This document shows, in pieces, positions 11,726 to 56,116 of a stretch of 64,000 nt of DNA. Source of the stretch: Eledone cirrhosa (lineage: Eukaryota). The notes beneath the pieces are model-generated. The model saw only the letters and a list, made by a program, of their open reading frames with translations, was not told where the DNA came from and made no database searches. The position numbers and the translations under genes were made by a program. The stretch's first letter is position 1; each line of letters begins with the position of its first letter. The stretch spans positions 310,186,001-310,250,000 of the forward strand of contig OZ024741.1 in assembly GCA_964016885.1 (NCBI GenBank), in the 5' to 3' direction.

Positions 11726-12504
11726 TATTATTTATTTATGTTCATACATGGAATAAAGGCGTTACCTAATGTTTCAAGACCCAAATTTGACCATTGCTCC
11801 AGAAAACAAGAGGCATCAAAATTGTGACTTTTCTTCAGGTACTAATATGGGTTTATAAGATACCGTTAAAAGTAAATTTGGTAAAGAACTCATGTTTATG
11901 AAAGATACCATAATAAAGCAAAGGGAAATAACTCCAAGATGTAAATATGAATTATGAGATCAATCAGGTGTTGTGTTCGTATGCTATAGCAGAAGTATTA
12001 TATTATGTAGTGGAATGTAATATATAGATGGTAATATTTATTAATGTATCGAGTATAGTAGTATAGGAAGTGTATTGTATTTTTTATATATGAGATGCAG
12101 ATACCTGGCTTGTTTGGGAGTTCAATAACCCTGCTTCAGTACTGATTTTGCCTATATAGACCCATCCGACCCTTTCTAGCAGGGAAGGCAGACATTAAAA
12201 TGATGAAGATGATATATATAAAATGTCCACATTCTATGCTGGCATAGGTTGGATGGGTTGTTATGGTCTAAGTCGCTTCTTAGTTCCATTTTGATATGGT
12301 TTCTATATCTGTAGGCCCTTCTTAGTGCCAATCTGGCACCAGCACTAGAAAAGTTGTCATGTTGTGTATGACTGCCAACCACTTTACAGAGTGTACCAGG
12401 TGTATTTTATCGGGGTACTAATACTAGAGTGGCTGCTTTGTCTCCTACAAAGCTAATAGTGAGTATATATACTTGAGTATATATAGTGAGTATATATACT
12501 TGAC

Positions 12505-14664
12505 AACTTACTGCAGGCTACTGATGAAACTTGTGGCTGGAGCAGAGCTCCAACCAGACAGAGAGTGACCTGGTGGTGGAACAGCACAGTAGATAAGGCC
12601 ATTAGAGACAAAAGACTAGCATGGAAGGCTTTGAAAAAGGGTGGGAGTAGAGAAGGATATACAGTCGCTAAGAGAGAAGCTAGACGTCAGGTGTACTTAG
12701 CAGGCAGGGAGGCTGAAAGTAGGAGGTTTGCCAATGTTCTGCGACGGGAAGATCAGAGGTGTGCGGTGTTCCACATTGCAAGGCAGTGTGTCAATGCAAA
12801 TCAGGATGTTGTTGAAGATAAATGTGTTCGGAATGATGCCGGTGTACTTAGTGTCACGAATGATCAGAAAAAGGAGGCCTGGAAATGTCATTATGAGAGA
12901 CTGATGAATGTGGAGAATGAATGGGAGAGAGAGAAATTACTCTCAGTAGATCCGACAGAGGGACCAGCTATTGAGATTGATGAATATAGGGTCCAAGAGG
13001 CGATTAAGGAAATGAAAAATGGTAAGGCTGCTGGACCGTCGGGGATAGTTGCTGAGATGCTGAAGGCATCAGGGGACATAGGCACTAAACTAGTTGTACG
13101 CATCATCAATCAGGCTATATATGGTGGTGTCCTACCCAAAGACTGGTGCAGCAGTATTCTCATAAATTGCTACAAAGGTAAAGGGGATGCTCTGGAGAGG
13201 GGCAATTATAGGGGTATAAAACTGATGGATCAGGTTATGAAAGTGGCAGAAAAGATATTAGCACAACTAATTAGAGAAGGGGTCAAACTAGATGAGATGC
13301 AGTTTGGTTTTGTGCCTGGGAAAAGTACAACAGATGGCCTCTTCTTGGTGAGACAATTACAAGAGAGGTTCTTAGAGAAGAATAAGCCACTATACTTACC
13401 CTTTGTTGACCTAGAGAAGGCCTTTGATAGGGTACCCCGATCTGTCATCTGGTGGTCCCTAAGGAAACTAGGTGTTGAGGAATGGCTTGTGAGGACAGTG
13501 CAAACTTTGTACAGAGGTGCTGTCAGTAAAGTCAGGGTAGGAATGGAGTTTAGTGAGGAATTCCAGATACAAGTAGGAGGCCATCAAGGTTCGGTCCTCA
13601 GCCCGCTCTTGTTCATTATAGTCCTCCAAGCCATAACAGAGGAGTTTATGACTGGCTGTCCATGAGAACTTCTCTATGCTGACGATCTGGTTCTTATAGC
13701 AGAATCAGTAGAGGAGCTAGAGAATAAATTCTGGCTATGGAAACAGCAGTTGGAAGCAAGAGGACTGAGAGTGAACCTAGCTAAGACAAAAGTGTTGATG
13801 AGTAGAAAAGAGGACAAAACTCTGATTCCATCAGAGAAATGGCCATGTTCAATATGCAGAAAAGGAACTGGCATAAATTCTATAAAATGCACACAATGCA
13901 GATCCTGGGTACACAAGAGATGTAGTGGGATAGCAGGCAAACTAACAGGTAGGGAGAAATACATATGCAGTAGATGTACAGGGAAATTAGACAGTAGAAG
14001 TCGCATTGATAGACACATTTTTCAAATGCAGGCGGGTGCTATAGAAGTGGTGGATAGCTTCCGGTACCTAGGAGATCAGATTAGCATGTTCCGAGTGTTC
14101 CGAGGCCATAGTATCTAGGATAAGGATGGGTTGGAAGAAGTTTAGGGAGCTGCTTCCTCTGCTGACGAAGAAGGGTTTCTCCCTGCGTACGAAAGGCCGG
14201 TTATATGATGCCTGTGTGAGGAGCGCGATGCTGCATAGTAGTGAGACATGGGCAGCAACTGCAGAGGATATGCAACGGCTGGAGAGAAATGAGGCAAGCA
14301 TGCTCCGTTGGATGTGCAATGTCAATTTGCGTGAACGACCCAGCATGAATGTGTTGAGAGAGAAACTGTGTCTGAGAGGGATAGAATGTAGTGTGCGAGA
14401 GAGGAGACTGAGGTGGTACGGACATGTGATGCGCATGGAGGATGACCGATGGGTGAAGAAGTGCCAGGAAATGCCAGCTGAAGGAAGACGTGGTAGAGGT
14501 AGACCACGAAAAACATGGGTGGAGGTGGTGAGAACAGACGTCAGATTGCTGAAGCTCATGGTGGAGATGACGAAGGACCGTGACAAGTGGAGAGATGCTG
14601 TGCTGAATAAGACTCGTCCCACCCTTGCAAGCAGGGAAAAGCGGACGTAAAATGATGATGATGA
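12505..14664 (+). mobile_element. 5'-truncated RTE-clade LINE, CRLS1 intron 3
   Basis: ORFs 12565-13665, 13750-14118 and 14126-14650 form one RT broken by a stop and a frameshift; ends ACCCTTGCAAGCAGGGAAAAGCGGACGTAAAA(TGA)n. Confidence 0.95.
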
Positions 14665-15305: not shown

Positions 15306-16580
15306 CAGGGTGCGGACGATATTTGTTCGCAAGATTACTGTCTAGGAAAAAATAATACAGTAGTTTTATTTTTTAAGATATATTTATCAAACTTGGGTCA
15401 GTTTGTCTTCATGACTTGTTCTTTCGATCTCACTCGATAAACCCGTCATTGGCTTTGATGACGGCCTCGGTACTGGCTACAGGCCTTCATCACTGTTCCC
15501 CGACTTAGGCCCCTAAAGGCACTTATGATCTTGGCCTTCAGATCGTCTTTCATATTACAGCTAGATCTGTTGGTGTCTCGTTCCACTGCGCCCCACACAA
15601 AGAAGTCGAGGGGGTTGCAGTCGGGTGAGCTGGGAGGCCAGATGTCAGGTGAAGTGTGGTCGACGAAGTTCTCTGACAGCCAGGTTTGGGTCTTTCGGCT
15701 GGTATGGCAGGGCGCTGAGTCTTGCTGCCACACGTACGGCCTACCTGCAGCTACCTGGTCGATCCAGGGCTTTACTACCTCGCTCAGAACGCGGATGTAG
15801 GCATCGGTGTTCAGCTTGAGGCCCTCAGGGAAGAAGTGAGGTGGCATGGCGTCACCTTGACTGCTGACAACACCCAAGACCAATGTTGTCGCTGGAAACT
15901 TTGTCTGCATGACTCTGGGCACGTCTTTGGATGAGACAGTGAGCCACCTGTTGTTCTGGGAGTTGATCTTCTGGTCTTGGCAGAAGTTTTTCTCGTTGGA
16001 GAAAAACCACAGCATGTCTGGCTCCAGTGGGTGTTTCAACTTGTTGATCAGCTTTTCTTGCATCGCCTTTGACAGAAATTGTCCTTTCCTCATCTTGTAT
16101 GAAACATAGCGAATGTCTTCATGTACCACCAGCCTAATGAGCTTTTCATCCAAGCCTTTCTCCCTTGCAATGGCACGCATCAACTTGCTAGGTTCATTGT
16201 TGATGATATCCTGAACTTCAGTGACGAACTCGAGCGTTCTGAAGGCGTCAGATCGTTGATCATGTGTTTTCCTCTTTGATGTTGCTTCGTAGTCGAATCC
16301 TGAATCTTCCAATTCCTTTCTGACCTTTTCCACCATTCTCCTGCAGACGCTGAGAAAGTCTGAAACTTCTTTATTTGTCCTCCCGGTGCGGATTCCAAGA
16401 AGAACTCTGTGCCTCTTCCACAAATTTGGAGGTTCAAAATTATTCATAATCAATTATTCTGAAAATAGATAATGGAAATATAGTCACTGTTTTTATGAAG
16501 ACAAGAGTGACAACGGAAGTAAAAAAAATTTGCATAAAATTAGCAGTTGAAAATTGCGAACAGATATCGTCCACACCCTG
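15306..16580 (-). mobile_element. Full-length Tc1/mariner DNA transposon, DD37D (maT-type), probably inactive
   Basis: 27-bp TIRs CAGGGTGCGGACGATATTTGTTCGCAA / TTGCGAACAGATATCGTCCACACCCTG with TA on both sides; transposase ORF 15446-16453. Confidence 0.95.
15446..16453 (-). pseudogene. DD37D transposase, first catalytic Asp replaced by Asn, apparent C-terminal frameshift
   Basis: WFFSNEKNF (normally FSDEK); QQDSAPCH and SPDCNPLD are separated by 37 residues; AVIKAN..FIE continues in another frame. Confidence 0.85.
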
Positions 16581-21074: not shown

Positions 21075-22795
21075 TCATCATCATCATCATCATCAACGTT
21101 TAACGTCCGTGTTCCACGCTTGCATGGGTTTGGACGGGGGTAGTCCCACTTGAGGCAAGAGTGATTGTCTTGCTCGCATAGGACTGTCTGGCAGGTTTTC
21201 TACAGTTGGATGCCCTTCCTAACACCAACCACATTTACAGTGTGGGTCTGGGAGGTTTTTACCGTGTTGCCTACACGGCCACATTACAGCGTGGACTGTG
21301 TGTTTTTTTGTCGTGACACCTACACGATCTCATTTGTTTCGGCCCGGATGGCGCGGCACCAACATAACTTTACATAGGACGGGGTGGTGTGGATGGGGTG
21401 GGGGTGGTGGTGGTGGGACGGGGTGTATTTTGTTAGAGATGCCTACTGGCAAGGCGGGTCTTCTCTGTTACTGAGTACCGCCAAAGGTCTCGGTCCAGTG
21501 ACATTGTCTTGGAGAGGTGTAAGTGTGTGAGGTCGGAGTTTATCAGCTCGTCCCAGGTTTTTCTAGGTCTGCCTATTCCGTGGCTACCGTCTATCTTTAT
21601 TGCCCTGCACTTTGTTATACAGCTATCGACTTTCATGCGCATCACGTGTCCATACCAACGTAGCCTTCTCTCGAGTAAACAACATCTGATCCCTCTTATC
21701 TCTAATTTTTTCCTTAGTTCGTTTATGCTTTGCCGTTCACGTATATTACTGTTACACATCCAGCGGAGCATGCAAGCTTCGTTCCTCTCTAGTCTGCGTA
21801 TATCCTCTGCACACAATGCCCAGGTCTCACTGCCATGCAACATTGCTGTTCGTATGCAGGCATCGTACAACCTGCCTTTCATTTTTAGGGAGAACCCTTT
21901 AGCAGCTAATAGTGGTATAAGCTCTCTGAACTTTTTCCAACCAGTTCTGACTCTAGCTACAGTACTTTCAGAGCACCCTCCCCCACTGCTGATTTTATCG
22001 CCCAGGTAACGGAAGCTGTCCACTATTTCTATAGAACCCTCTGCGCAATTGAAAGAGCTAGTATTGTGTGGGCACTTGCTGCTACTTATTGCACCAGAAC
22101 ACCGGCCACATGTAAAATCTATGTTCTTAGTTAGCTTACCTGTGATCCCACTACATCTTTTATGCACCCATACTTTGCATTTAGGACACAAAATGGAGTT
22201 TCTACCTACGCCTTTCCTACACACCGAGCACGACCATTTCCCAGAAGGGACCGCCGCCTTGTTTTCTTTCCTACAAACTAGAACTTTGGTCTTAGCCAGG
22301 TTAATTTTAAGTCCTTTTGACTCTAGGCCGTGCTTCCATGTTTGGAATTTCTTCTCTAGCTCGGCCATTGATTCCGCTATGAGTGTCAGGTCGTCTGCGT
22401 ATAGGAGTTCCCATGGGCAGCCTGTCTTGAACTCCTCTGTTATAGCCTGAAGGGCAATAATAAATAGTAGGGGGCTGAGAACAGAGCCCTGATGGACGCC
22501 AACTTTTACGCTAAACTCTTCACTATATTCGTTGTTAATTCTAACCTTGCTGACTGTTTCTTTATACATGGCTTGTATAGCCCTCACAAGCCATTCGTCA
22601 ACGCCTAGTTTTCTAAGAGCCCACCAGATAATGGAGCGGGGGACTCTGTCGAAGGCTTTCTCCAAGTCGACAAAAGCTAAGTAGAGGGGTTTACCTTTAG
22701 CTAGGTACTTCTCCTGTAGTTGTCGTACTATGAAAAGAGCGTCTGTGGTACTTTTGCCTGACACAAACCCGAACTGCATTTCATCTAGGTCAATT
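21075..22795 (-). mobile_element. 5'-truncated RTE-clade LINE with open 448-aa RT C-terminal half and a ~350-bp 3'UTR
   Basis: ORF 21433-22779 (QFGF, DLEKAFD, YADD, Cys/His finger, RWYGHVMR, GRPRKTW); the 3' region ends ACCCATGCAAGCGTGGAACACGGACGTTAAACG(TGA)n. Confidence 0.93.
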
Positions 22796-22812
22796 CTCTA
22801 TACACATATATC

Positions 22813-38681: not shown

Positions 38682-38829
<148 letters not shown>

Positions 38830-41800
38830 CGGAGAAGATAGACGTGTTTTTGTTTCGCTCCTGCATTTTGTCGCAATTTATTACGACAAGCGGTAGGTTT
38901 GTTTAAGTAACTTGTTATTTGTTGTGTTTAAACCCTCGCCTGGGCCCGCAGACGTTGGGTAAAATAAATTTCGCCCCTTTTTGGGGCGAAATTTAATAGT
39001 TATAAGTTGTCGATAAAAAGTCGTTTAGTGACAATGGACGCCATTAATACGACGCATGCCACGCCCCCCAAGGAAAGTGATAGAGAGAAGGTAGCAGAAC
39101 AACGCTGTAAGCCGTCCCTCCTCACTCCCGCAAAAGACACCACGGAATCAAAAGAAAAAATTGTGAAAATGGGTGAAAACCCCAAAAGTAACAATTACAC
39201 AAACAAGAACAACAATGACAATAACAACACAACCAACAACAGCAACAATGACAATAACAACACAACCAACAACAGCAATAATGACAACACCAACAAAGGA
39301 AAAAAGCAAGCCAACACGAATAACAACAACAACAATGATAACAACACGAAAGAAAACGGACCCACAGCTGCAGTCTCCTTCGCACAGGCGCTCCGAGAAG
39401 CGCAGACATACAAGGCACTGGACATCTCGAATGCCAAGAAATTGCTGAAAGAAGCAAGGAATTGTGTAAATTTCGGGGAAGATGGGGAATTCACAATTAC
39501 CTCCCCCGAAGAAATTAGAAGGGACACAGTCCTCAGGACCGTAATCTTTAGGACAGTTTCGAACACGACTAGGAAACCGGCTCAATTGTCCCAAAGCGAA
39601 ATTGAGTTGGTCCTAAGTAGTGCCTGGAAGGATATCGCTTTCACACATATTTGGGGAAAAGAACTCAAAAGATAAGAATCTCGGGCATCAGGACAAATGC
39701 GAGCATTTGGTGGGTGCTAACGGGATTCTTAGAAGATGAGGACACAATCCTTTCGATAGGCGAATCCACCGGGGACGTATTCGGCGGCAATAGCCTTGAA
39801 GTTCTGGTCCAAATGAGACCAGAACGGATAGCAAGAATACCGCAGCGTGTGTCTCCCTGGATGGAGTCGCCTTCATAAACATTTCTGTAAAGGGCAGGCG
39901 GCCTTCATGCTACCACTGTTCAAGAAGTGGTCACCTGATGGCTTCCTGTCCCCTTTTAAATGCCCCCCCCCCCCCAAAAAGACGCTTCTGCCCACCCCAC
40001 ACACAACAACACAACCACCACCACCACCACCACCACCACCACCACCACCACAGTAACCACAACAACACAAGACACTGTCCCACCCAACCTCTCCCCACCT
40101 AAAACAAATACAAAAGCAACCACAACAAAACCCCAAAATATATCCCTCCCCAACAACATGGACGAGGACCCCTTATCAACGTCACCCAGTGACGACGAAG
40201 GAGAACCCTTTCAACCTGTAAAAAGAAAGAAAAGAAGGCACCACATCAACAAAAATGCAACAAACACACAACCACCAACACAAACAGAACAAACATCACA
40301 AACAAAAAAACCTACCCCTCCCGAAAACATAACACATTATACAAAACGCAAACACACAAGAACAACACACAAAAACAAACACAACACAACAAAAACAGTA
40401 TACATACATCAACACAAACAACAAAACACTTGTGCAAACAATAGACAAAGACCCTTCCGTGGAAACCGAAGGGAAAATGTTCACCAACGCGGCGACTAAA
40501 CCGCATTTAAAAATGATTAGGGTCCCAAAGGACACCTACGCAATGCTCAAACAGAACTTTCCCGAGGACGTGAGGAACCCCTGTACTAGACCTAGCAACC
40601 GCGTCCTCTTGAAATGTTTCCCCACCACCACCCCAGACACCCCTCCTCCACCAAATACCCCCACCCCACCACACACTGATGTCCGCACCACATCCCAAAC
40701 CACCACCCCACCAAACAACCCCGCCGACACCCCCATGGAAATTGTGCAGCCTGGTCCCCAGGAGAAGGACAGGTAGGTGTCTTTTCCTTTTTCTCCACTC
40801 TAAACTCTTCACCATCAACATGGCTGTTATAAGAGTTGGATGTTTAAATGTGCGCGGCCTGGGGATGTCCTGGTAGCAGGGAAAACTCTTAAATGACCTC
40901 AGGTCGCACAGAATGGATGTGATAGCTATTTGCGAGTCCAGGATCAGCAGCGAGCACCAACTGGCCCCCATCTTCGACGACTTTGAAATCTATGCATCTC
41001 TCTGTCAGCCGGGGGGTGGGGACGGGGTGGTCGTTCGGCTGCGAAAACACCTGGGCCTCGCAACACGGAAGGTACACCTGGACCGGAGGGTCGACTGGTG
41101 GTTCTAGACGTCGGCAGTAGTGAAGGTGGAGCCTTCAGGCTAGTGGAAGCGTATGCCCCATCTGGGACACCGCGACTGGACTTCTTCCAGCGCCTAGAGA
41201 CTTTTCTAGGAACGTCTCGCTCCTTGCTTTTAGTGGGGGACTGGAATCGTATCCTGGATGCACGTTGGGACTATGTAGGGGCATGTCCCGATAGAGGGGG
41301 TTGGGGGTGTAACAGCCTCAAACGGTTATCGGCCGATTTGATCTGGCCGATAGATATCGACTAGATTTTCTGACTGTGCCACTGTGGACGTGGACTAATC
41401 GCAGCAGAACATCTAGGTCGTACCTAGATAGGTTCTTAGTTAGAAATAAGGATAGGGACATATTAAGCTGTCCACGAATGTTCATGGTTGACTATTCGGA
41501 TCACAAGTTGGTGACGGGGCAATTGTCAACAGCAGGTGGTGGGGCTCTCTCAAAAGAGAAATTAGAATAGAATCGATAGGTTTTAGTCAGGAATTAGCAT
41601 CAGATAGGAATAGAACTGAAAGGGAATTGATAGATAGAGTAGAAGAGGCGATTAGGAGTGGCAACGTGGCCGGCGTGCTGGCGTCAAGAACGGCCCTAGA
41701 CCAGTTCTTTGATGCGAAGCACGAGGGCTGTGTTGTTAGGAGTAAAATACGTGCACTGGGTAACGAGGGAGCCAAAGCTGTTAGGTGGGCCCGAGTGACA

Positions 41801-44348
41801 GAGGCAAAAAGTGGAAACAAGTCCACGATTCGATCTTTGAAGGACCAGGATGGACGCGTGATCCTTGAACCTGAGCGGATGAGCGGGCCTTTCAACGGCG
41901 TTTTGCACGACTGTTCGGGAGGGGCGGCGGGCCGGGTGAGGCCATGGATTTCGGTCCATACCTCGACGGTCTGCCGCAGCTCTCGGACGGGGAGGCGAAG
42001 TCCTGCGAAAAGCCGATTTCAGCCGCTGAAATAGGGGAAGCGCTGAGCCAATGCGGCAAACGCAAATCTCCCGGTCTCGATGGTCTACCATACGAACTTT
42101 ATGTAGCGATGCCGGACTTGTTCTCCGATCTCCTCGAGGCGGTCTACTGCAACTGGCAACAGAACGAGAGAATTCCCAGTTCTATGACCAAGGGCGTAGT
42201 CACGCTGGTGAGGAAGGACGAGAACAAGGGGGATGGCATAGATAATTTCAGGCCTATAACTCTGGTAAACACAGAGTTAAAGATTTTGGCCAAGGTGTTA
42301 GCGAAGAGGTTAGCGCTTGTCGTCGGGAACCTGATGGGAGAAGCGCAGACTTGCGCAATCCCGTCCAGGTCCATACACGACAACCTCCACCTCATGCGAT
42401 TCATCGTAGAGAGGGTAGAGAACGAACCCGGCTTTGGTGGGGCCCTGATCAACTTGGATTAATCTAAGGCGTTCGATAGAGTCGACCATCGGTACCTAGA
42501 TGCGGTGCTCGCGGCGGCAGGCTTCGGACCCGTATTCAGGGGCTGGATTGCTGCAATGCACAGCAGCAACACCTGCTCGAGGGTCAAGGTGAACGGCTAC
42601 CTCTCGGAGCCGTTCCAAATCGCGCGATCCATCCGACAAGAATGCCCTCTCTCCTCCCTTCTGTATGTGCTGGCTCTCGAACCACTACTGCGGAAGTTGG
42701 AGCTGTTGCAGGGAATCCCCTTGGAACCGGGATTGCGGAAAGCGGTGTCGGCCTACGCCGATGACGTGACAGTAATGGTGTCGTGCGCCTCGGAAATCGG
42801 GCAGATCGGCACCTTACTGGAGGAATACGAAAGGTTTACAGGAGCCAAGCTGAACCGGGACAAATCCGTCGGTTTGCAACTCGGAACGTGGAGAGGCAAA
42901 CTGATACCTTCCGACGGCGTCGTCGGACGCTGGACGGAGGGAACGGTGAAGCTGCTCGGGGTCTGGTTCGGACCGGACCTCCAGGTGGAGAAAAACTGGG
43001 ACGAGGTAACGGGCAGGGTGTTTGCACTCGCCCAGAAGTGGGCCGAGTGCAAACTATCCCTAAAAGGCCGAGCGGAGGTGGCGAACACTTATATAGCGTC
43101 CGTCATCTACTACCGCTTGACCGTCGTGCCTTGCCCAGCGAAAACGCTCGCCAAAATGGAGCGCGCGCTCTTCCGATTCCTTTGGAAGAAGCGGGCCCCT
43201 TTGGTGAGAAGATCCATCTGCTGTCAACACCCTTCGAACGGAGGGATGCCGTGGCATTAAGGTTACGGCACCTCCATGTATTCCTCACCGGTCAGCCGGT
43301 GTGGGCCCCTTTTTTGAGGCGAGCCTTTCCGAGACTTGTCTCACTCACCGAGCTGCAATCCTGGGTCAAGCAAAGACCGAGAAAAGTGGGCGACTGGTAC
43401 ATTGAATGTGCCCAGGCGCTCACGGCCCTCTGTCAAGCAGATCCGGCAATCAGTGGAGACTCAACCTCAACATTCTATAGAGGGTTGGTGCGCAGCAAGT
43501 GCGACGACGCTCTCGAAGAGGCTCTGGGCATGGGGGAAGACAAGCTAGCCAGTCTGTTCGGTAGGACGTTTGGCCCGGGACCGATGGACAACTTCCAAAA
43601 GTCCCTGGCTTGGCAGTGCTACCGAGGAGCTCTACCCGTTCGGGACAAGCTCTACAGACATGGGCGCCCGGGTAGGGACCCTTCGAAGAAGATCTGTCCG
43701 AGATGCGTGCGTGACGAGGAAACTGTCGCGCACGCATTCGTACACTTCCCTGGCGTTGCTGACCTGTGGGGCTATGTGGAACGACTACTGTCGCGGGTGG
43801 GACCAATCCGGTTGACCACTGAGTACATTGTCACCATCAAACCACCTCCCCCCTTCAAAAACGAAGGAGAGGCGGTTTTCCTCTGTGTGATAGCTATGGC
43901 GAAAGAGGTTGTATGGTGGACGAAGTTGAAAGAGCTGAGGTCAACACTTTTCTCTCCGGCCAACAACTGGTCCTGTTTTTCAAGTACCATTTTAGAAGAA
44001 GGATCAGAATGGAGAGAGAGGTGCTCTACCCCAGCAAGTTTTATGAAAGGTGGGTGAAAGTGGCGAGAATGGCCCGAGTGAATGGGCCTTCTCTCTATAT
44101 CAGCCTGTAGGTGAGAGAGGAGAAGGAGGAGAGGAAGGGAGCACCCGCTCTTTGTGCTCCTGAGGAGGAGGGTTGCACATTTTTTTCGGGGGTCTGTGCG
44201 ACCCACGTCAACGCCCCCTCCCTATTGAGGACTTCGATTGTTGAATTTGATTTGTTATATGTTTTTACACGTCCTTTGAAATGTATGTAAACTCCCCCCT
44301 TGTATTTGTCCCAATCTTTGATGCCCTGGTGGCAAATAAATAGAAAGT
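38830..44348 (+). mobile_element. Tx1-clade (L1 group) non-LTR retrotransposon, copy A, full length, decayed
   Basis: ORF1 remnant 39034-40776 with CYHCSRSGHLMASC knuckle; ORF2 remnant 40820-44110 (LNVRGL, GDWN, SDH, SPGLDG, FRPITL, YADD, CPRC...H); AATAAA at 44335, then (TATC)n. Confidence 0.93.
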
Positions 44349-44369
44349 TATCTATCTATCTATCTATCT

Positions 44370-44477
44370 GGGATTATTTGTTGTTTTATTAATAATTTTA
44401 TTTTCATATACCTGTATGTAAACTCCCCATTTGTATTTGTCCCCTTCTTTTGTGCCCTTGTGGCTAATAAAGAAATT
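44370..44477 (+). mobile_element. 3'-terminal fragment of the same Tx1 family (severely 5'-truncated insertion)
   Basis: TGTAAACTCCCC..TTGTATTTGTCCC..TGCCCTTGTGGCTAATAAAGAAA matches the 3' ends of copies A-C; lies between TATC repeats. Confidence 0.85.
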
Positions 44478-44486
44478 TATCCATCT

Positions 44487-47400
44487 GGGATGAACACACG
44501 TGTGAAACTTGCTGGGTAAGTTCTACTTAAATTTCTATAGAAATTCTTGACTGTGAGCCTTCATTTTTATACCAATTTGTAGAGGGACTGCTAGCTCAAA
44601 TTTTGATTTGGTCAGTCTCTCAAAATATTCTACGCCTTTAGGCGAAATAGTTCATGAAAAAAAAAGTAACGTTTTAAAAAAATGGCTGTAGCAACAGCTT
44701 CTTCACCAACATTCGAAGGAGGAAAAGGGAAGATATGCTTACAGCTTCCCCCTTCCACTGTCATAGTAGCAGATGTCTTAGACAAAGGTCAGACAGAAGA
44801 AGGATTTTCTTCACCTGCTGCCCAACAACTTGACGTTGCCATGGCAACAAACCAAAACCAAAAGTGTGAAACAATGAACAACAACAACAATGCTATGAAC
44901 GAAAACAACACCAACAACAACGAAGTCAACAACAATAACAAGAACAACAACAACAAAAAAAACAACTCCAGCACAAGCGAAAACAACCAAACACACACAC
45001 ACACACACAAAAAAAAGGAAACGTTTGCAGAAGCCCTTGCCAAAGAGACAGATTTTATAGAAAAAGATCTGTCAAACCGAGCGCACCACCTATAGGACGC
45101 TGCGCAACATATAACTTTCGAAGGTAACGGCTATCGAATAAGTACCCCACCGGAAATTAGGGCCGCGATCTTAAGAAAAACAATTTTCTTCCGGACGATC
45201 TGCTCACAAACCAAGAAATCTATGGCTTTAAGCAATAGCACGATGGAAACCGCTCTAAAGGAGGCAATGCCAGACATTGCTTACTTCCAGAGGGCCAAGC
45301 AGTACGGGATCATCTCGGTGCTCTTTAAAAGCGAGGCCCTCGCCCAGAAATATTCGGTGGCTCCAATTAGAACGAGCCAACACATCTTCTTCCCAACATA
45401 CATGGGAAGAAGAACCCATAAAATAAGAGATTCCACCGAACACCAACATTTGGTGGATCCTGGGTGGTTTTTTGGAGGAGGGTGAAGACAACTTCCTCTT
45501 TGTAAAAAAATCAATCCGACAGAACTGGAACGGGACCTCAATGGAACTGTTGGTTCAAATGAAACCGAAGAGGATTAAAAAAATACCGGAAAGGGTGCTG
45601 GTGGATGATAACCATGTTATCCACATCGCAGTGGCGGGCAAAAGACCACGATGTTTCAAATGTGGAAAAAAACAAACATTTAAAAACATTTTGCCCAATG
45701 ATGGATGTGGAAAAACTAAAGAAGGCGTTGTTGCCAACCCCAAAACTACAACAGACACACTCGAAGACAAAAAACACAACCCCGAAACCATCAACATTCA
45801 CCCAACCATCACAAACCACAAAAGACACCACTCCAAAAATTCCCCTCTGTCCAACACTCCCCCCCAAACAAACACGCAAACACTCCACCACAACACAACA
45901 TACCCCTCCCACCTACCCACAATGATAACACCTCAGACACGGGAACCTCTACATCTCCAAGTGAGGAAGAAGAGGAACCCCAAAAATCCAAGAAGCAAAA
46001 AAGACAGAAAAAATACAAAAACATCAACTGAAAACACGCACATACCCAACACTGACATAAACGACAACCATACCAACAACACAACCAGACACTTCACCAA
46101 CAAAACTAACACCTACACCACCACAATCACAAACCCCAACCACAAAAAGAAAACTACAAACAGAAACAGTACACATAAAAAACAAAACACACTACACATA
46201 CATAAAAACAAGAAACAAAGAACTGGTGGAAACTGTCCGAAAGGACTCCACAATACAAACGGAAAGGAAAACCTTCCCCACCAACGACCCACCCCAAACC
46301 GCAAACTTATCAGGATAACAACCCTACAGTACGATTCTTTAAAAAGGAACTTCCCACATGATGTGGGCCCACCTTGTCAAAAACCCCTTAACCGTGTCCC
46401 TGCTAAAAGGATTCCCTCCCTCCCCAAACACCACCAATATGGACATGGAGATCGAACAACCCGACCTCCAGGAAACGAAAAGGTAAGTGTTCCTGCCTTT
46501 TCTCTCCTTAACTCTTCTTCACCAACATGGCGACTATACAAGCTGGATGTTTGAATGTACGTGGTCTGGACATGCCCTGGAAACAGGGCCAGCTTTTAAA
46601 TGATCTCAGGTCACATTGTATAGATGTGATAGCCATCACCGAGTCCAGGATTCACGACAAGCAGCAGCTAACCCTCATGTTCGATGACTTTGAGATCTAC
46701 GCATCTCTCTGTCAGCCAGGGGGTGGAGGGGGAGTTGCTGTTCTGTTTCGAAAAAACTTGGATCTCAAAGCACAGACGATTCACTTGGACCCGGAGGGCA
46801 GTTGGGTGGTCCTGGACGTGAATGGTAGTGAAGGTGGAGCTTTCAGACTGGTGGCCGTATATGCCCCGACTGGGACATCGCGACCAGAGTTCTTCAAGCG
46901 ACTGGAGCCATTCCTGAGAACGTCTCGCTCCTTAGTATTAGCGGGGGACTGGAATGGCATCTTAGATGCACGTTGGGACTATGTAGGAGCTTGTGATAAT
47001 AGAGTGGGGTGTAATAGCCTAAAAAATCTCATCAGCCAATTCCAACTGGCTGATAGATATCGACTAGACTTCCCAAGTGTATCACTGTGGACTTGGAGCA
47101 ATCGCACTGGTTCTTCTAGATTCTATTTAGATAGATTTTTAATTAGACAGAATGATAAGGAAACATTAAGCTGTCCACAAATGCACATGGTTGCCTATTC
47201 AGACCACAAATTAGTCACCTGCGTAGTCAACCTTGATAGGGACCCGGATACAGGAAGCTAAACATGTCGCTTCCGGCGCGTAAAGCCTACAGTAAACGGT
47301 TTAGCACCTTAGTTAAGTGCCAGTTGACGGGGGCGATCGTCAACAACAGGTAGTGGAGCTCTCTCAAGAGAACAATTAGAATAGAAACGATAGCCTTTAG

Positions 47401-50175
47401 CAAGGAAGTAGCTTAAGGAAAAAACAAAACCGAAAAGGACAGTTCTTTTTCGGTAGCTAAAGTAGAAGAGGCACTTAGGAATGTCAGTACAGCTGACGTG
47501 CTAGCGGCGAGAACGGCACTATACCAGTTCTTCAACGTGAAACACGAAGGTTGTATTGTCAGAAGTAGAACACGTGCTCTAAGAAACGAGGGAGCAGAGG
47601 CGAAAAGTGGCAACAAATCCACAATTCGGTCTTTGCAAGACAAAGATGGACGCATTCTACTTGAAACCAAGTAGATGTGCACGGCCTTCCAGCAGCATTT
47701 TGCACAACTGTTCGGGCAAAGCGGTGCGTCGAGGGAGGTGACGGACTTCAGCTCCTACCTCGACGGCGTACCACGACTCTCGAGCACGGATGCAGAGAGC
47801 TGCGAAAGGCCGATCACAGCGGGCTAAATAGAAGATGCCCTAGGCCGCTGCGGGAAACGCAAATCACCCGGTTTAGATGGTCTACCCTATGAGTTTTACA
47901 TAGGCTAGCCAGATTTGTTCTCTGGCGTCCTCGAAGCGGTCTACTGTAACTGCCAGCAGAATGGGAGGATTCCCAGTTCTGTAAGCAGAGGCGTAGTAAC
48001 GCTGATCAGGAAAGATGAGAACAAGGGGGATGAGATAAGCAATTTCAGGCCCATAACTCTGCTCAACACAGAGTTAAAGATTTTGGCCAAGGTGTTAGCA
48101 GCGAGGCTGGCGCTTGTCGTCGAGAACCTGGTAGGGGAAGCGCAAACGTGTGCAATCCCGACCAGGTCCATTCACGACACCCTCCACTTCATGAGATACA
48201 TCATAGAGAGGGTGGGGTGTAAACCTGGCTTCGGCGGGGCTCTGATCAATTTAGATCAGTCTAAGGCATTTGATAAAGTCGACCATCAATACTTGGAAGT
48301 GGTTCTCAAGGCGGCCGGCTTCGGTCCCGTCTTCAGAGGTTGGATCGCTGCCATGCACACCAGCATCTGCACGGCAATCAAGGTGAATGGCTACCTATCG
48401 GAGCCATTCCAAATCATGCGTTCCATCCGCCAGGGATGGCCTCTCTCCTCCATTCTGTATTACTGACTCTCGAGCCATTACTGCGGAAGTTGGAGCTGTT
48501 GCAGGGCATCCCGATCGAACCAGGACTGCGGAGAGCAGCGTCGGCCTATTCCCGACGACATAACCGTAATGGTGTCGAAGACCTCGGAAATCGGGGTAAT
48601 CGGCAACCTATTACAGAAATACAAAACGTTGACAGGAGGAAGACTAAACCCAAACAAGTCTGTCGGTTTGCAACTCGGCACATGGAGAGGCAAACCCATG
48701 CCTTCCGACAGTGTCGCTGGACGCTGGACAGAAGGACCGGTGAAATTGCTCGGGGTCTGGTTTAGTCCAGACCTCCAGGTGGACAAGAACTGGAACGAGG
48801 TCATGGCGAAGGTGTTTCCACTCACCCAGAAGTGGGCTGAGTGCAAACTCTCCTTGAAAGGTCAAGCGGAGGTGGCGAACACTTACATAGCGTCCGTCAT
48901 CTACTACCGCTTGACAATCATGCCTTGTCCCCGCGAATACCTCACCAAAATGGAACGCCTACTCTTCAAGTTCCTCTGGAAGAAACAGGCTCCATTGGTG
49001 AGGAGATTCATCTGCTGTCAACACCCTTCTAACGGAGGGCTGGGCATGCCATGGCTGATGATGCGCAAACACGCGCTGAGGCTACGCCATCTCCAGGTAT
49101 TCCTGATCGGTGAACCGGTGTGGCTGTCGTTTGTGAGACAAACTCTTCCACAACTCGTCTCACTAACAGAGCTGCAGTCCTGGGTCAAGCAAAGACCGAA
49201 AATGGGTGCCTGGCACCTCGAGTGCCTTCAGGCGCTCACAGCCATCTACCAAGCGGAGCCGGCAATCAGCGGAGACACCACCTCGATATTCTATAGGGGA
49301 TTTGTGGAGGATAAGTGCGACGACGTTCTTGGGGAAACTCTAGGCATCGAGGAGGACGAACTGACCAGTATGTTCGGGAGGACTTTCCGTCCAGGGCCTA
49401 TGGATAACTTCCAGAAGTCTCTGGTCTGGCAGTGCTACCGAGGAGCTCTACCATTTCGAGATAAAATCTACAGGCACGGACGCCCTGGCAGAGATCATGC
49501 CAAAAGGACCTGTCCAAGATGCGAGCAGGACATCGAAACCGTTCTGCACGCAATTGTTCAGTGCCCAGAGGTGACCGACCTGTGGAATTAGGTCGAACAG
49601 CTACTGTCACGTGTGGGACCTATCCAGTTGTCAGCCGAGTCTATCGTGAGGATCAACCCGCCGCCTTCTTTATTTAATAATGAAGGAGAGGCGGTTTTCC
49701 TCTGTCTGGTGGCTATGGCGAAAGAGGTAATATGGTGGACGAGGTTAAAAGGACTGAGGGCAAATATCTTTCTCTCCAGACAACAACTTATCCCCTTCTT
49801 TAAGTACCACTTCAGAAGGCAGGTGAGAGGGGATAAAGAGGAGCTACACCCCAGTAAATTCGCTGAAAGGTGGGTGAATGTGGCGAAAATGGCCCGAGTA
49901 AATGTATATAAACCTGTAGATTGAGGAAGATAAACAGAGCGAAGACAGGAACACCCACAGAACGTGTTCCTGGAGTTGAGGGTTGTTCTATCCACGGGGT
50001 GTAAAACAACCATGCAGCAACGTTCCCCCCTATTGGGGATTTCAATTGTTATTTTATTATATATAGTTTATTGTTATTTATTAATGTTAAAGTTATATGA
50101 CTTTTATGTAAAACCCCCGCCGTCACGTCATGTAATGTCCCATTTTTGTACGCCCCTGTAGCAAATAAAGAAAGA
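44487..50175 (+). mobile_element. Tx1-clade non-LTR retrotransposon, copy B, full length, decayed
   Basis: ORF1 remnant 44682-46486; ORF2 remnant 46527-49919 with APE endonuclease, RT and C-terminal Cys/His motif; AATAAA at 50164; followed by (TATC)n 50176-50272. Confidence 0.93.
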
Positions 50176-50274
<99 letters not shown>

Positions 50275-51183
50275 ACGATGGACACATGTGCTGATCTCGC
50301 TCGGTAAGTTTCATTTAAATTTATCTGGAAATTGTGAACTGTAAACTTTCATTTTCGTACCATTTTGTAGAGGCACTGCCAGGTCAAATTTTGATCTGGT
50401 CAGTCTCTCAAAATATTCTACGCCTTTAGGCGAAATAGTGTTGTAAACATTTTATCTTTCGAAAAATTTCGAAAAATCCTATTTTGAGAAAAATTGCTGA
50501 AGCATCTTCACCAACAATCAAAGAAAGAAAAGGGAAGTCATACTCACAGCTTCCCCCTGCCACTGTCACAGCAGCAGATGCCAAAGGCAGAGGTCAGCCA
50601 GAGGAAGAATTTTCTTCACCTGTTGACCGACAACTTGATGTAGCCACAACTATACAAGAAACTGAAAACAACAACAACAACGACAACAACAGCAACAATA
50701 AAGACAACAAAAACAACAACAACACAAACGTCACATATGTAGTAAACACTTCCTTTCGTAAAGAAAGGGAATTTCACACAACAAAAAATGAAAATAACAG
50801 CCCACAACAGACACCAAAAAATACAGAAAATGAAAAAATTGAAAACACATCCAACAATACCAATCAAAAGGAAAAAAATGTCAACACAAACACCAAAGAA
50901 AATACAAACAACAGTGACAACAACAGCAACATTTCTTTTGCTGATACCGTAAAAAAACCCGGAAATATTTCAACTTTTGGATTTAACCAACGCGAAACAA
51001 AAGTTGGAAGATGCTAAACAATATGTGACTTTTGGACCCAATGGGTCATTTAGCATAAATTCACCACAAGAACTAAGGAGAGAAAATGCCCTGAACACGG
51101 TGGTTTTCAGGACAATCACAAATGCATAAAAAAAACCAGCTCAACTATCTCAGAGTGAGATTGAGCTAGTATTAAGGAACCAC

Positions 51184-52434
51184 ATGGATAACATTTTATT
51201 TATTCAGAAAGCCAAACTTTTCGGCAGCATCTCGGTGCTAATGAAAAACAACATAACAGCACAAAAATATTCCATCGCGCCCATTGTGTCCACCCATTTT
51301 ACATTTTTCCCTACATACATGGGAAAAAGAACGCAAAAAATAAAAATTACATGTATAAGACCCAAAGTAAATATTTGGTGGATACTTTATGGCCTAATTG
51401 ACCTTGAACAAGACACTTTGATCTCAGTAGGAAAATCCTCCAGAGATATATTTAGTGGGACTAGCATCGAAATTCTGGTGCAGATGAGCCCAGAACGTAT
51501 AATGAAAATCCCACAGAGAGTACCTCTGGATGGACAGACCTACATAAACATTTCGGTTGAGGGTAGGCGGTCCGCATGTTACCACTGCGCAAGCAGAGGT
51601 CACCTAAGGGCTGCCTGTCCTCAATTGACAAAAAACCCCACACTTTTACCAACACCACAAATAACAACACAACCACCACCACCACCAGCACCACGACAAC
51701 AAGAAAAAACAACAGAGAACAATATTCCACCCAACTCCTCCCCACCCAAAACAAATACAAAAACACACACAGACACTACAGAACCCCAAAACATACCCCT
51801 ACCCATCAACACGGATGAGGAACCCCTATCGACGGCACCCAGCGGCGATGAGGAGGAAACCTTCCAACCCGTGAAAAGAATAAAAAGAAAGAACCGCATG
51901 AACAAAAACGAAACAAACACACAAACAGCACAAAAATCACAAACAAAAGTTCCCCCTCTCGAAAACAAAATACCCACAACAAAGAGAAAACACGTGCAGG
52001 AACCACAGACAAAAACAAACACAACACAGGAAAAGTACACATACACTTACATAAACGAAGAAAATAGAACACTGATGGAGACCATCAGAAACAACCCTTT
52101 GGTCAAAACCGAAGGGAAAACTTTGGATAGGTCCAACAAAAACAAAAAAATGAACCTAAAACTGATCAGGGTCCCTATAGGAACTTATAGATCCCTAAAA
52201 GAAACATTTGTAGAGGACGTAGGGAATTCCTGCGTGAAACCAATCAACCGCGTCCTCTACAAAGACCTCCCCACCACAGGCACCCCCACCCAAGTCATCC
52301 CCACCCCACCAGACACCCCTTCCTCACCAAACACCACCGTCTCCACCCCACCAGAAACCACCACCCCACCCAACAACCCATCCCCCACCCTCATGGAAAT
52401 TGTGCAGCCCGATACCCGGGACGCAGAGAGGTAA
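51184..52434 (+). CDS. Tx1 copy C ORF1, open C-terminal part (CCHC zinc knuckle, Thr/Pro-rich tail)
   Basis: CYHCASRGHLRAAC = CX2CX4HX4C; ends MEIVQPDTRDAER*. Confidence 0.8.
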   Translation: MDNILFIQKAKLFGSISVLMKNNITAQKYSIAPIVSTHFTFFPTYMGKRTQKIKITCIRPKVNIWWILYGLIDLEQDTLISVGKSSRDIFSGTSIEILVQMSPERIMKIPQRVPLDGQTYINISVEGRRSACYHCASRGHLRAACPQLTKNPTLLPTPQITTQPPPPPAPRQQEKTTENNIPPNSSPPKTNTKTHTDTTEPQNIPLPINTDEEPLSTAPSGDEEETFQPVKRIKRKNRMNKNETNTQTAQKSQTKVPPLENKIPTTKRKHVQEPQTKTNTTQEKYTYTYINEENRTLMETIRNNPLVKTEGKTLDRSNKNKKMNLKLIRVPIGTYRSLKETFVEDVGNSCVKPINRVLYKDLPTTGTPTQVIPTPPDTPSSPNTTVSTPPETTTPPNNPSPTLMEIVQPDTRDAER

Positions 52435-52682
52435 GTGCCTTTTCTCTTCGCCACCAGCATGGCTATGCTAAGAGTAGGCTGTTTAAATGCGCGTGGCCTG
52501 GGCTCAACTTGGAAGCAAGCAATGCTTCTAAATGACCTCAGATCACAACGTATAGATGTGATGGTTATTTGCGAGGCCCGGATCAGCAACGTGCGACAGC
52601 TGGTCCCCACCTTTGATGTCAGCCCGGAGGTGGGGGTGGGGTTGTCGTTCTGCTGCAAAAACATCTGGGTCTCGCAACACAG

Positions 52683-55600
52683 ATGGTACATTTGGACCCG
52701 GAGGGTCGACTAGTGGTTCTGGACCTTGGCAGTGGTGAAGGCGGAGCGTTTAGGTTGGTAGCCGCCTACGGCCCTTTCGGGTCAATGCGGCCGGACTTCT
52801 TCTATCGTCTGGAGACTTTTCTAGGGACGTCCTGCTCCTTGTTATTAGTGGGGGACTGGAATGGTATCCTAGATGCACGCTGGGACTACGTAGGGGCCTG
52901 CCCCGATAGAGAGGGGTGCAATAGCCTCAAAGGGTTAATCGGTCGATTTGACCTGGCCGATAGATATCGACTAGATTTTCCGACTGCGCCAACCTGGACT
53001 TGGGCAAATCGTAGCGGATCATCTAGGTCGTACCTAGATAGGTTCTTAGTTAGAATTAAGGATAAGGACTTTTTAAGTTGTCCAAAAATGCGCACGGTTG
53101 GCTATTCAGACCACAAGTTAGTGACCTGCATGGTCAACCTTGACAGAACTCATAGACAGGGACCCGGTTACTGGAAGCTCAACTTGTCCTTACCGGCAAG
53201 TAAGGCTTACAGGGACCGGATTAGCACTTTAGTTAAGGAGCGGTTGACGGGCGCCATCGTCAACAGCAGGTGGTGGGGATCTCTCAAAAGAGAGATTAGA
53301 GTAGTCTCTATAGAATTTAGTAAGGAGTTAGGCTCTAATAGAAACAGGAAGGAAAGGGAATTGGTAGATAGTGTTGAAGAGGCAATTAGAAGCGGCGACG
53401 TGGCCAGAGTGCTAGCGTCGAGAACGGCCCTGGGCCAGTTTTTCGACGCGAAACACGAAGGCTGCATCGTCCGAAGCAAAATACGTGCTCTGGGAAACGA
53501 GGGGACCAAAGCTGTTAGCTGGGCCCGCGTGACAGAAGCCAAAAGAGGGAGCAGATCCACTATCCGGTCTTTGCGAGACCAGGATGGACGGGTGATCCAT
53601 GAACCTAAGCAGATGTGCGAGGCTTTTCAAAAGCACTTTGCCGGATTGTTCGGAAGGGGTGGGGGGCCGGTTGGGGATGTGGACTTCGGTCCATACCTCG
53701 ACGGCCTGCCGCGTCTCTCGGACAGGGAGGGGAAGTCCTGCGAGGAGCCGATTGCAGCCGCTGAGATAGAGGACGTGCTGAGCCAATGCGGCAAACGCAA
53801 ATCCCCGGGTCTCGATGGTCTTCCATACGAACTATATCTAGCTATGCCGGACTTGTTCCCCGATCTCCTCGAGGTGGTCTACTGCAACTGGCAACAGAAC
53901 GGGAGAATTCCCTGTGCTGTGACCAAGGGCGTAGTCACGCTAGTGAGGAAGGACGAGAACAAGGGGGACGATATAAATAATTTCAGGCCCATAACTCTGC
54001 TAAATACAGAGTTACAGATTTTGGCCAAGGTGCTAGCAAAGAGGTTGGCGCTTGTCGTGGGCAACCTGGTGGGAGATGCGCAGACATGTGCTATCCCGTC
54101 CAGGTCCATCCACGACAATCTCCACCTCATGCGATACATCATAGAGAGGGTTGGGAACGAACCCGGCTTTGGTGGGGCCCTGATCAACTTGGATCAATCT
54201 AAGGCATTCGATAGGGTCGACCATGGTTACCTGGATGCGGTGCTAGCGGCGGCAGGCTTCGGACCCGTTTTCAGAGGCTGGATCAATGCCATGCACAGCA
54301 GCCGCATCTGCTCTAGGGTCAAGGTGAACGGCTACCTCTCGGAGCCGTTCGAAATTGCGCGGTCCATCCGACAGGGGTGCCCTCTCTCCTCCCTTCTGTA
54401 TGTAATGACTCTAGAGCCACTGCTGCGGAAGTTGGAGTTGTTGCAGGGCATCCCGTTGGAACCGGGATTGCGGAAAGCGGTGTCAGCCTACGCCGATGAC
54501 GTAACAGTAATGGTGTCGACGGCCTCGGAAATCGGGGCGATCGGCACCTTACTGGAGGAGTACGAAAGGTTTACAGGGGCTAAGCTGAACCGGGACAAGT
54601 CGATCGGTCTGCAACTCGGCACGTGGAGGGGCAGATCGATGCCCTCCGATGGCGTCGTCGGCCCGGTGAAGTTGCTCGGGGTCTGGTTCGGACCAGACCT
54701 CCAGGTGGAGAAGAACTGGGGTGAGGTAACGAACAGGGTGTTTGCACTGACCCAGAAGTGGGCCGAGTGCAAACTGTCCCTGAAAGGTCGGGCGGAGGTG
54801 GCGAACACTTATATAGCGTCCGTCATCTACTACCGCCTGACCGTTGTGCCTTGCCCAAGGGAAACGCTCGCCAAAATGGAGTGCGCACTCTTCCAATTCC
54901 TTTGGAAGAAGCGGGCTCCTATGGTGAGGAGATCCATCTGCTGTCAACACCCTTCGAAAGGAGGGCTGGGGATGCCGTGGCTAATGATACGTAAACACGC
55001 ATTAAGGCTACGGCACCTTCAGGTATTCCTCTCCGGTCAACCGGTGTGGGCCCCGTTTGTGAGGCGAGCCTTTCCCAGACTCGTCTCACTCACCGAGCTG
55101 CAATCCTGGGTCAAGCAAAGACCGAGAAAACTGGGCGCCTGGCACACCGAGTGTGCCCAGGCGCTCACGGCTCTCTGGCAGGCGGACCCGGCTGTCAGTG
55201 GAGAATCCACCTCGTCATTCTATAGAGGGCTGGTGGTTAGCAGGTGCGACGACGCCCTCGGAGAAGCCCTAAGCATGGAGGAAGACGAACTGGCAAACCT
55301 GTTCGGTAGGACATTCAGCCCGGGACCCATGGATAACTTCCAGAGGTCCCTGGCCTGGCAATGCTACAGAAGGGCTCTGCCCGTTCGAGAAAGGCTCTAC
55401 AGACACGGGAGCCCGGGTAGGGACCCCTCGAAAAAGATCTGTCCCAGATGCGTGTGCGACGAGGAAACCGTTGCACACGCATTGGTACACTGCTCGGGCA
55501 TTGCCGATCTGTGGGGCTATGTCGAACAACTGCTGTCAAGGGTGGGACCGATCCGGTTGACCACCGAGTCTATTGTAACGATCAAGCCGCCTCCCCTCTT

Positions 55601-55856
55601 CAAAAACGAAGGAGAGGCGGTGTTTCTGTGCGTAATAGCCATGGCGAAAGAGGTTGTATGGTGGACGCGTCTGAAAGGACTGAGGTCAGGCACCTTTCTC
55701 TCTGGCCAACAACTGGTCCGTTTCTTCCGATATCATTTCGGAAGAAGGATCAGGATGGAGAGAGAGATGCTGCACCCCAGCCGTTTTTATGAAAGATGGG
55801 TGAAAGTGGCGAGAATGGCCCGTGTGAATGGGCCTTCACTCTACATCAGACTATAG
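52683..55856 (+). CDS. Tx1 copy C ORF2 (APE endonuclease, reverse transcriptase, zinc-binding tail); true start 52459 is frameshifted
   Basis: 1057-aa open frame with GDWN, YLDRFL, SDH, GYWKLN, SPGLDG, DQSKAFDRVDH, IRQGCPLS, AYADDV, CPRC..ETVAHALVHC. Confidence 0.92.
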   Translation: MVHLDPEGRLVVLDLGSGEGGAFRLVAAYGPFGSMRPDFFYRLETFLGTSCSLLLVGDWNGILDARWDYVGACPDREGCNSLKGLIGRFDLADRYRLDFPTAPTWTWANRSGSSRSYLDRFLVRIKDKDFLSCPKMRTVGYSDHKLVTCMVNLDRTHRQGPGYWKLNLSLPASKAYRDRISTLVKERLTGAIVNSRWWGSLKREIRVVSIEFSKELGSNRNRKERELVDSVEEAIRSGDVARVLASRTALGQFFDAKHEGCIVRSKIRALGNEGTKAVSWARVTEAKRGSRSTIRSLRDQDGRVIHEPKQMCEAFQKHFAGLFGRGGGPVGDVDFGPYLDGLPRLSDREGKSCEEPIAAAEIEDVLSQCGKRKSPGLDGLPYELYLAMPDLFPDLLEVVYCNWQQNGRIPCAVTKGVVTLVRKDENKGDDINNFRPITLLNTELQILAKVLAKRLALVVGNLVGDAQTCAIPSRSIHDNLHLMRYIIERVGNEPGFGGALINLDQSKAFDRVDHGYLDAVLAAAGFGPVFRGWINAMHSSRICSRVKVNGYLSEPFEIARSIRQGCPLSSLLYVMTLEPLLRKLELLQGIPLEPGLRKAVSAYADDVTVMVSTASEIGAIGTLLEEYERFTGAKLNRDKSIGLQLGTWRGRSMPSDGVVGPVKLLGVWFGPDLQVEKNWGEVTNRVFALTQKWAECKLSLKGRAEVANTYIASVIYYRLTVVPCPRETLAKMECALFQFLWKKRAPMVRRSICCQHPSKGGLGMPWLMIRKHALRLRHLQVFLSGQPVWAPFVRRAFPRLVSLTELQSWVKQRPRKLGAWHTECAQALTALWQADPAVSGESTSSFYRGLVVSRCDDALGEALSMEEDELANLFGRTFSPGPMDNFQRSLAWQCYRRALPVRERLYRHGSPGRDPSKKICPRCVCDEETVAHALVHCSGIADLWGYVEQLLSRVGPIRLTTESIVTIKPPPLFKNEGEAVFLCVIAMAKEVVWWTRLKGLRSGTFLSGQQLVRFFRYHFGRRIRMEREMLHPSRFYERWVKVARMARVNGPSLYIRL

Positions 55857-56115
55857 GTGAGGAAGATGAAAGACCAAGGGAGCACCCCTTCTCTGTGCTC
55901 CTGAGGAAAAGGGTTGCACACTTTTTTCGGGGGTGTGTGCGACCCCCAAGGCGCCTCCTCTCTATTGAGGATTTTGTTATAAATTTTATTCTGTTATATT
56001 TTATTTTATTTTTATATTTTGTTATTGCCCCCTCCTTATTGAGGACGCCTTGTTTTGTAAACTCCCCCATTGTACTTCTCCCACTTTTGATGCCCTGGTG
56101 GCAAATAAAAGAAAC

Positions 56116-56116
56116 A

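Follow-up and report, generated by a model that had tools for sequence, protein, structure and literature searches.

The window analyzed here is a 64,000-nucleotide stretch of Eledone cirrhosa DNA (GenBank assembly GCA_964016885.1, contig OZ024741.1, positions 310,186,001 to 310,250,000 of the forward strand; it starts at C2:310,186,001 of a 3.0-Gb animal assembly). It holds three full-length, Tx1-like long interspersed nuclear elements (LINEs), head to tail, in each of which the first open reading frame (ORF1) ends on a 5′ splice site. This donor looks to be under selection across six families of the element, and it works: in a sequencing run that is probably RNA, the donor of one copy is spliced to an exon of the host gene RRP36. 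What the element gains from it is less clear. We propose, with a probability of roughly 0.4, that the whole second frame, ORF2, is a mostly retained intron whose removal would yield a minor mRNA encoding ORF1 alone.

The donor on the ORF1 stop codon

The three copies (A, B, and C) lie at window positions 38829-56116 with TATC repeats between them. ORFs are broken in all three, and intact ORF1s and ORF2s are present elsewhere in the genome. In the feature list below, as in the text, a slash marks an exon-intron boundary and UTR stands for untranslated region.

38829..44348, +, copy A: Tx1-like LINE, full-length, with broken ORFs, flanked by TATC repeats
38890..38898, +, candidate donor-like site GCG/GTAGGT in the 5′UTR of A
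39034..40776, +, ORF1 of A, frameshifted, C terminus ...EKDR-stop, last codons Arg-TAG
40770..40779, +, ORF1-end splice donor of A, CAG/GTAGGT, first intron base 40773
40780..40819, +, pyrimidine-rich spacer of A, then the ORF2 ATG at 40820
40820..44110, +, ORF2 of A (endonuclease-reverse transcriptase), broken; its stop TAG is the candidate acceptor TAG/GT at 44110
44484..50175, +, copy B: full-length, broken
44513..44641, +, candidate 5′UTR intron of B, donor-like GTAAGT at 44516, acceptor-like TTTAG/G at 44641
46480..46489, +, ORF1-end splice donor of B, AAG/GTAAGT, first intron base 46483
46527..49919, +, ORF2 of B, broken, TAG end at 49919; this copy has a decayed acceptor tract
50272..56116, +, copy C: full-length, of a young family; its ORF2 has about 97% identity with those of intact copies
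50301..50429, +, candidate 5′UTR intron of C, donor-like GTAAGT at 50304, acceptor-like TTTAG/G at 50429
51130..52434, +, 3′ part of the C ORF1: CCHC zinc knuckle, C terminus ...DAER-stop, Arg-TAA
52428..52437, +, ORF1-end splice donor of C, GAG/GTAAGT, first intron base 52431
52459..55856, +, ORF2 of C: endonuclease, reverse transcriptase, zinc finger; frameshift near 52615; candidate acceptor TAG/GT at 55856
55857..56116, +, 3′UTR of C: purine-rich spacer, hairpins at 55878-55901 and 55911-55945, AATAAA near 56104, then (TATC)n

A first-pass annotation of the window had placed donors at 40773, 46483, and 52431, and all three are confirmed. Between the donor GT and the ORF2 ATG there are 28-47 nt of pyrimidine-rich sequence (80-84% C/T), and from the donor to the TAG at the end of ORF2 there are 3,338 (A), 3,437 (B), and 3,426 nt (C). 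The ORF1 of window copy B is frameshifted; the homologous D ORF1 terminates in ...ETKR-stop.

This D is one of three further families (D, E, and F), which bring the total to six. ORF2 identity is 71-86% among A-E, and about 68-91% between F and A-E. The ORF1 end reads AG/GTAGGT in A (stop TAG), AG/GTAAGT in B, C, D, and E (stop TAA), and AG/GTGAGT in F (stop TGA). Within families, we find AG/GTAGGT in 19 of the 24 A-type ends examined and AG/GTAAGT in all 10 of the E ends. Thus three different stop codons are in use, and across the six families the donor varies only at positions +3 and +4. Because the stops vary among TAG, TAA, and TGA only so that GTRRGT stays, the donor is conserved beyond what an arginine followed by a stop requires, the question that the first-pass annotation had asked to be put to many family members. 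Its idea would have suffered had the last codon, the stop, and positions +5 and +6 varied freely among copies; across the families they do not. Family E has an ORF1 tail unrelated to that of the other families (...LPLREVR-stop), yet the same donor motif at its end.

How surprising is this conservation? The eight donor positions from -2 to +7, excepting +4, are invariant over families A-E, and of the four-fold-degenerate ORF2 sites 81/255 (0.32) are invariant over the same families. The chance of eight invariant donor positions is then about 1e-4, or about 1e-3 without the two stop-codon letters, both rough figures since the motif window was chosen after the motif had been seen. Of 17 metagenome loci from distant relatives, 6 have an ORF1 stop that can be read immediately ahead of ORF2, and the motif occurs in 0 of these 6; arginine is the last residue in 0 of the 5 ORF1 homologs reaching the C-terminal region. 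These ORF1 homologs came from a HMMER search; a word-index search with ORF1 gave none, and a scan of viral contigs returned no matches. From the alignments, then, the ORF1-end donor looks selected, and its being kept on the ORF1 stop says that the lineage would need U1 or the spliceosome at that spot.

Splicing from the donor

The observations on RNA come from sequencing run X4, which is one sample, of unrecorded kind and tissue and probably RNA, available as assembled contigs, which lose rare variants; it is one of six runs, none of them recorded as RNA. At the donor of one young C copy there are six X4 records. In one of them the first base is the last base of the exon, another continues into ORF2, and three come from other families.

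The sixth, a contig of 535 nt, departs from the element at precisely that exon base. The 30 loose letters of this contig have a single match in the genome, directly behind a pyrimidine-rich CAG acceptor that lies 2,187 nt downstream of a C-type donor on the same strand, so that the intron is GT-AG. The exon joined is that of RRP36 (Pfam E-value 4.5e-4 over 22 amino acids; the next exon carries RDPRF). The joint is in frame with ORF1, although that ORF1 is broken. The GT-AG joint is missing from the assembly, from which we infer that X4 is RNA. The ORF1-end donor is therefore functional, spliced here to a host exon. The LINE side of the joint is assigned by proximity, its 30 letters being common to many copies, to a sense C-type LINE with a duplicated, broken ORF1 that sits in a 6.1-kb RRP36 intron (G000:C14:40238881-40244300, L105).

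Contigs that read through the donor are present in X4 for the C and A types. Runs X5 and X6 have thin element coverage and nothing at the donor. A comparison of X4 with X1 by depth, with relatively more ORF1 and 3′UTR, was put aside because the depth of contigs is no guide to the relative abundance of different parts of one gene.

A proposed retained intron, and the alternatives

In the reading we prefer, the natural partner of the donor would be a weak acceptor at the ORF2 stop (YAG/GT) or, in family E, a CAG in the 3′UTR, and the proposed intron would start inside the last codon of ORF1 and end on the stop of ORF2. A strong donor paired with a weak acceptor would leave most of the RNA unspliced; only the unspliced RNA would allow ORF2 to be made and to copy that RNA in cis, and additional ORF1 protein would come from the short message formed by the spliced minority. 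Spliced RNA with its exon junction at or before the stop should escape nonsense-mediated decay. For an RNA bound for the cytoplasm, carrying a strong donor that goes unused usually has a cost, so its retention suggests that splicing pays. U1 at the donor may in addition protect the unspliced RNA, as described in passages on EVD, a plant element (PMC5580714).

The evidence for the acceptor is weaker than that for the donor, which is far better conserved, an imbalance that the first-pass annotation had already seen. YAG/GT is present at the ORF2 end in 9 of 10 variants of the 3′ end, with variable letters from +3 onward. In one of them, H, CAG/GT has been kept though the stop has shifted; H counts once, since it is a single fragment amplified inside an inverted-repeat element. 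At many loci this fragment (L093:2780-3130, L125-L129) is present as two inverted copies separated by about 860 bp, with 95-99% protein identity, and its carrier is probably a fold-back or composite element. The ORF2 of the fragment terminates in Arg-stop on AG/GTAAGA. An ORF2-end acceptor is thus plausible from its conservation. The motifs that the annotation reported in A (44110) and C (55856) exist as described; neither X4 nor the C and B/D/F ORF1 ends searched for retrocopies give evidence that such an acceptor is used. Its remark that B had lost about 10 bp of the tract is true of the window copy, where a G-to-A change after the TAG also reflects decay of that copy; the B copies L042, L044, and L048 carry the tract and TAG/GTTGAG. 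Could the site instead be a donor, or the ORF1 end a recursive splice site? The ORF2-end site would make a poor donor in B, D, and F, where it reads GTTGAG, and a recursive site at the ORF1-end donor is unlikely given the purine-rich bases upstream. Hairpins over the donor or the ORF2-end tract were also considered and rejected (single-fold z from +1.2 to -2.45, with no consensus stem there). Farther into the 3′UTR, two hairpins (window 55878-55945 and homologs) are common to most families, with double changes in 6 of 21 predicted pairs, and could possibly be a 3′ signal read by the reverse transcriptase.

Several results weigh against ORF2 as an intron. A joint from ORF1 to the 3′UTR is found in 0 of the 6 X4 records at the C donor and in none of the whole-element X4 joints listed (15 of 140), and a read-through contig in X4 shows no interruption at the point from which that joint would depart. 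The RRP36 locus does not offer a fair contest between the acceptors of element and host, since the fragment in between has a mutation in its ORF2-end AG. The ORF2 of family E ends in TGTAA, with no AG at the stop; a polypyrimidine-CAG, a strong candidate acceptor, lies about 150 nt into the E 3′UTR in 9 of 10 loci scanned. The annotation had expected the spliced message to encode the same ORF1 protein. This is what an immediate stop would give in A and C, but the spliced ORF1s of B, D, and F would gain tails of 27, 27, and 42 residues from the 3′UTR frame. Overall, its interpretation has partial support, from a donor that is conserved and used; splicing may, as it inferred, set the ratio of ORF1 to ORF2.

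Nor did spliced copies turn up among the genomic ORF1 ends searched. There are 1,488 + 14 C-type ORF1 ends in the genome and 2,819 exact C 3′ ends, and among the roughly 1,500 ORF1 ends we find no spliced retrocopy. The 23 deviant C ends (14 that are not G at the first intron position, 6 with G but not T, and 3 with GT but not A, the latter from a search with a 23-letter pattern, longer than those of the other C searches) are all point or small indel mutants. The 20 GT-not-A ends of B, D, and F are point or small indel mutants or belong to family F, again with no spliced copy, and all the deviant ends in both sets run on into a normal spacer and ORF2. The genome-wide search covered C and the GT-not-A class of B/D/F, with families A and E and the non-G and G-not-T classes of B/D/F outside it. 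Within it, the ORF1-only retrocopies with a precise junction that the annotation had suggested looking for are absent, even though a mere 260 nt or so would separate the joint from the 3′ end. Because ORF2 would have to act in trans on an ORF1-only RNA, the lack of retrocopies limits the germline abundance of that RNA without excluding it.

A bolder version of this proposal, which we hold still more tentatively, adds a second intron in the 5′UTR. The whole reverse transcriptase ORF would have turned into a regulated intron, the spliced RNA would be a three-exon ORF1 mRNA, and only unspliced RNA would jump, a retroviral logic in an element without long terminal repeats (LTRs), in which some 1,500 C donors would also act as traps for host exons. 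The 5′UTRs of B, C, and D carry GTAAGT 25-45 nt from the 5′ end and YAG/G about 125 nt later, in the loop of a CGCC...GGCG palindrome (window 44513-44641 and 50301-50429; L031, L038, L094). We regard the pair as bounding a candidate intron. Its presence in all three families, despite a D 5′UTR whose sequence differs from that of B and C, points toward splicing. The 5′UTRs of F and A have similar donors at different spacings. One X4 contig covers the region unspliced, and there is no spliced copy among the 5′ ends examined.

We have weighed four other explanations. The one that fares best, which we nevertheless consider unlikely, is that the donor is a docking site for the U1 small nuclear ribonucleoprotein, with no internal splicing; bound U1 would help transcription to continue across ORF2 or prevent premature cleavage and polyadenylation, and splicing into host genes would be a side effect. 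This would account for a donor so much better conserved than the acceptor, for the read-through contigs, for the internal joints missing from X4, and for the missing retrocopies, and there is precedent in EVD, for which passages of PMC5580714 describe that mutation of the U1 site leads to termination at a cryptic poly(A) site. But there is little canonical signal in ORF2 to suppress (AATAAA/ATTAAA occurs 0 times in the A-D copies examined and once in E), and U1 docking does not explain why 9 of 10 variants have YAG/GT where ORF2 stops.

Less probable still is that the motif and the pyrimidine spacer together form a translation signal, for stopping and reinitiating at ORF2, and that the match to a donor is a coincidence. 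The short distance from the motif to the ORF2 ATG and the CAAC-ATG context common to the families would fit such a signal. On the other hand, the motif varies only at two positions that a donor tolerates, over three stop codons, splicing occurs at the exact base, and there is no conserved hairpin (z +0.3 to -2.45, consensus -1.3 kcal/mol).

We give little credence to a partner elsewhere, whether an acceptor within ORF2 (a mini-intron of 42-61 nt that would fuse ORF1 and ORF2 in frame) or one in the 5′UTR of the next tandem element. Codon 3-5 of ORF2 does include an in-frame AG in A, C, E, F, and some D copies, five families have eight AG sites within ORF2 in common, and the elements do stand in tandem. 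However, B and the intact D copies (MAGLRV...) lack the in-frame AG, the intron in C would be very short at 42 nt, the internal AGs lie in coding sequence where protein constraint could explain them, and X4 has no such branch. Finally, an ancestral chance donor that simply persisted without selection, as common ancestry of the six families and the after-the-fact choice of the motif window would allow, is equally hard to credit when no more than 32% of four-fold sites have stayed invariant across five families and the neighboring ORF1 tails and spacers have been replaced.

A Tx1-like LINE among known systems

ORF2 combines an N-terminal endonuclease of the apurinic/apyrimidinic type with a reverse transcriptase (Pfam Exo_endo_phos, E-value 9.8e-14 in B; RVT_1, E-value 4.6e-25 in C), and its closest solved relative is human L1 ORF2p (E-value 4e-45, vs. 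7e-20 for R2). The C ORF1 has a CCHC knuckle of the pattern CxxCxxxxHxxxxC, with a zf-CCHC match (E-value 0.0059) that is below the curated Pfam cut-off; such an ORF1 zinc knuckle is typical of the Tx1 clade. TATC repeats directly follow 100 of 132 A-D/F 3′ ends and are also found upstream of 5′ ends, whereas ATT follows 13 of 15 E-type ends. Family E (L165-L174), with many intact ORF2s, thus has (ATT)n downstream where A-D/F have (TATC)n, and its flanks mark it as the product of a target switch inside one lineage. Preferences of this kind are expected of microsatellite targeting of the Tx1 type (PMC4494074, in part). Passages of the same paper describe the Tx1-clade LINEs Kibi and Koshi, which are alike in having two ORFs, an endonuclease-reverse transcriptase ORF2, a CCHC knuckle in ORF1, and a microsatellite preference; they differ in the repeat unit, and those passages describe no splice signals for them. 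"Tx1-like" rests on the ORF2 domains, the CCHC knuckle, and the target preference, the homolog matches being without a named Tx1 reference.

Copy C itself may be a mosaic. Compared with L094, window 50272-52434 and what follows show about 97% identity in ORF2 and much lower identity in ORF1 and at the 5′ end, which likely reflects exchange of ORF1 and 5′UTR between sub-lineages. The window also contains other retroelements at 12490-14118 (+) and 21433-22797 (-), with a reverse transcriptase followed by a PHD finger, and at 15446-16453 (-) a 335-residue frame with weak DDE_3 and HTH matches, a Tc1/mariner-like transposase.

The closest parallel to the proposed arrangement is in Ty1/Copia elements, where for Arabidopsis EVD a conserved donor and a spliced GAG RNA have been described (passages of PMC5580714). 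The likenesses are that a donor close to where the structural ORF ends is conserved, that the quality of the donor outweighs that of the acceptor, that full-length RNA predominates, and that U1 has a second role. The differences are that EVD is an LTR element with a single polyprotein frame, a short intron, and early termination, and that there the internal splice is proven. In our LINE the proposed intron is the whole ORF2, 3.3-3.4 kb, and X4 does not contain the internal splice. What our element does have in common with the Copia subgenomic GAG scheme is that the donor terminating its structural ORF is both conserved and functional.

Among LINEs, the "half-L1" elements called HAL1 have ORF1 and a 3′ tail without ORF2, and they are derivatives of deletion at the DNA level; here, in contrast, we found no ORF1-only copy with a splice joint. 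Human L1 also has functional donors in its RNA and splicing that competes with the full-length RNA, and it leaves spliced integrated retrotransposed elements (SpIREs) at 116 of 6,609 full-length copies, about 1.8% (passages of PMC5860796). As described there, the L1 sites are in the 5′UTR and ORF1, and the spliced copies are dead ends that keep ORF2. In our element, the donor is on the ORF1 stop in all six families and no spliced copy was found. L1 has been termed intronless, with splicing not needed (PMC10901741, in part). The titles and abstract openings that we searched contain no such design in a Tx1 or L1 element, with most subscription journals outside that scope. By that measure, a Tx1-like LINE whose ORF1 terminates on a working and apparently selected donor is new, and its ORF1-only mRNA is a proposal only.

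LINEs are generally treated as intronless and their splicing as an accident. If the ORF1-only message is real, a LINE would set its ratio of ORF1 to ORF2 in a manner that has until now been described for LTR elements. And even without such a message, host genes can be spliced to any of thousands of working donors, as happens at RRP36.

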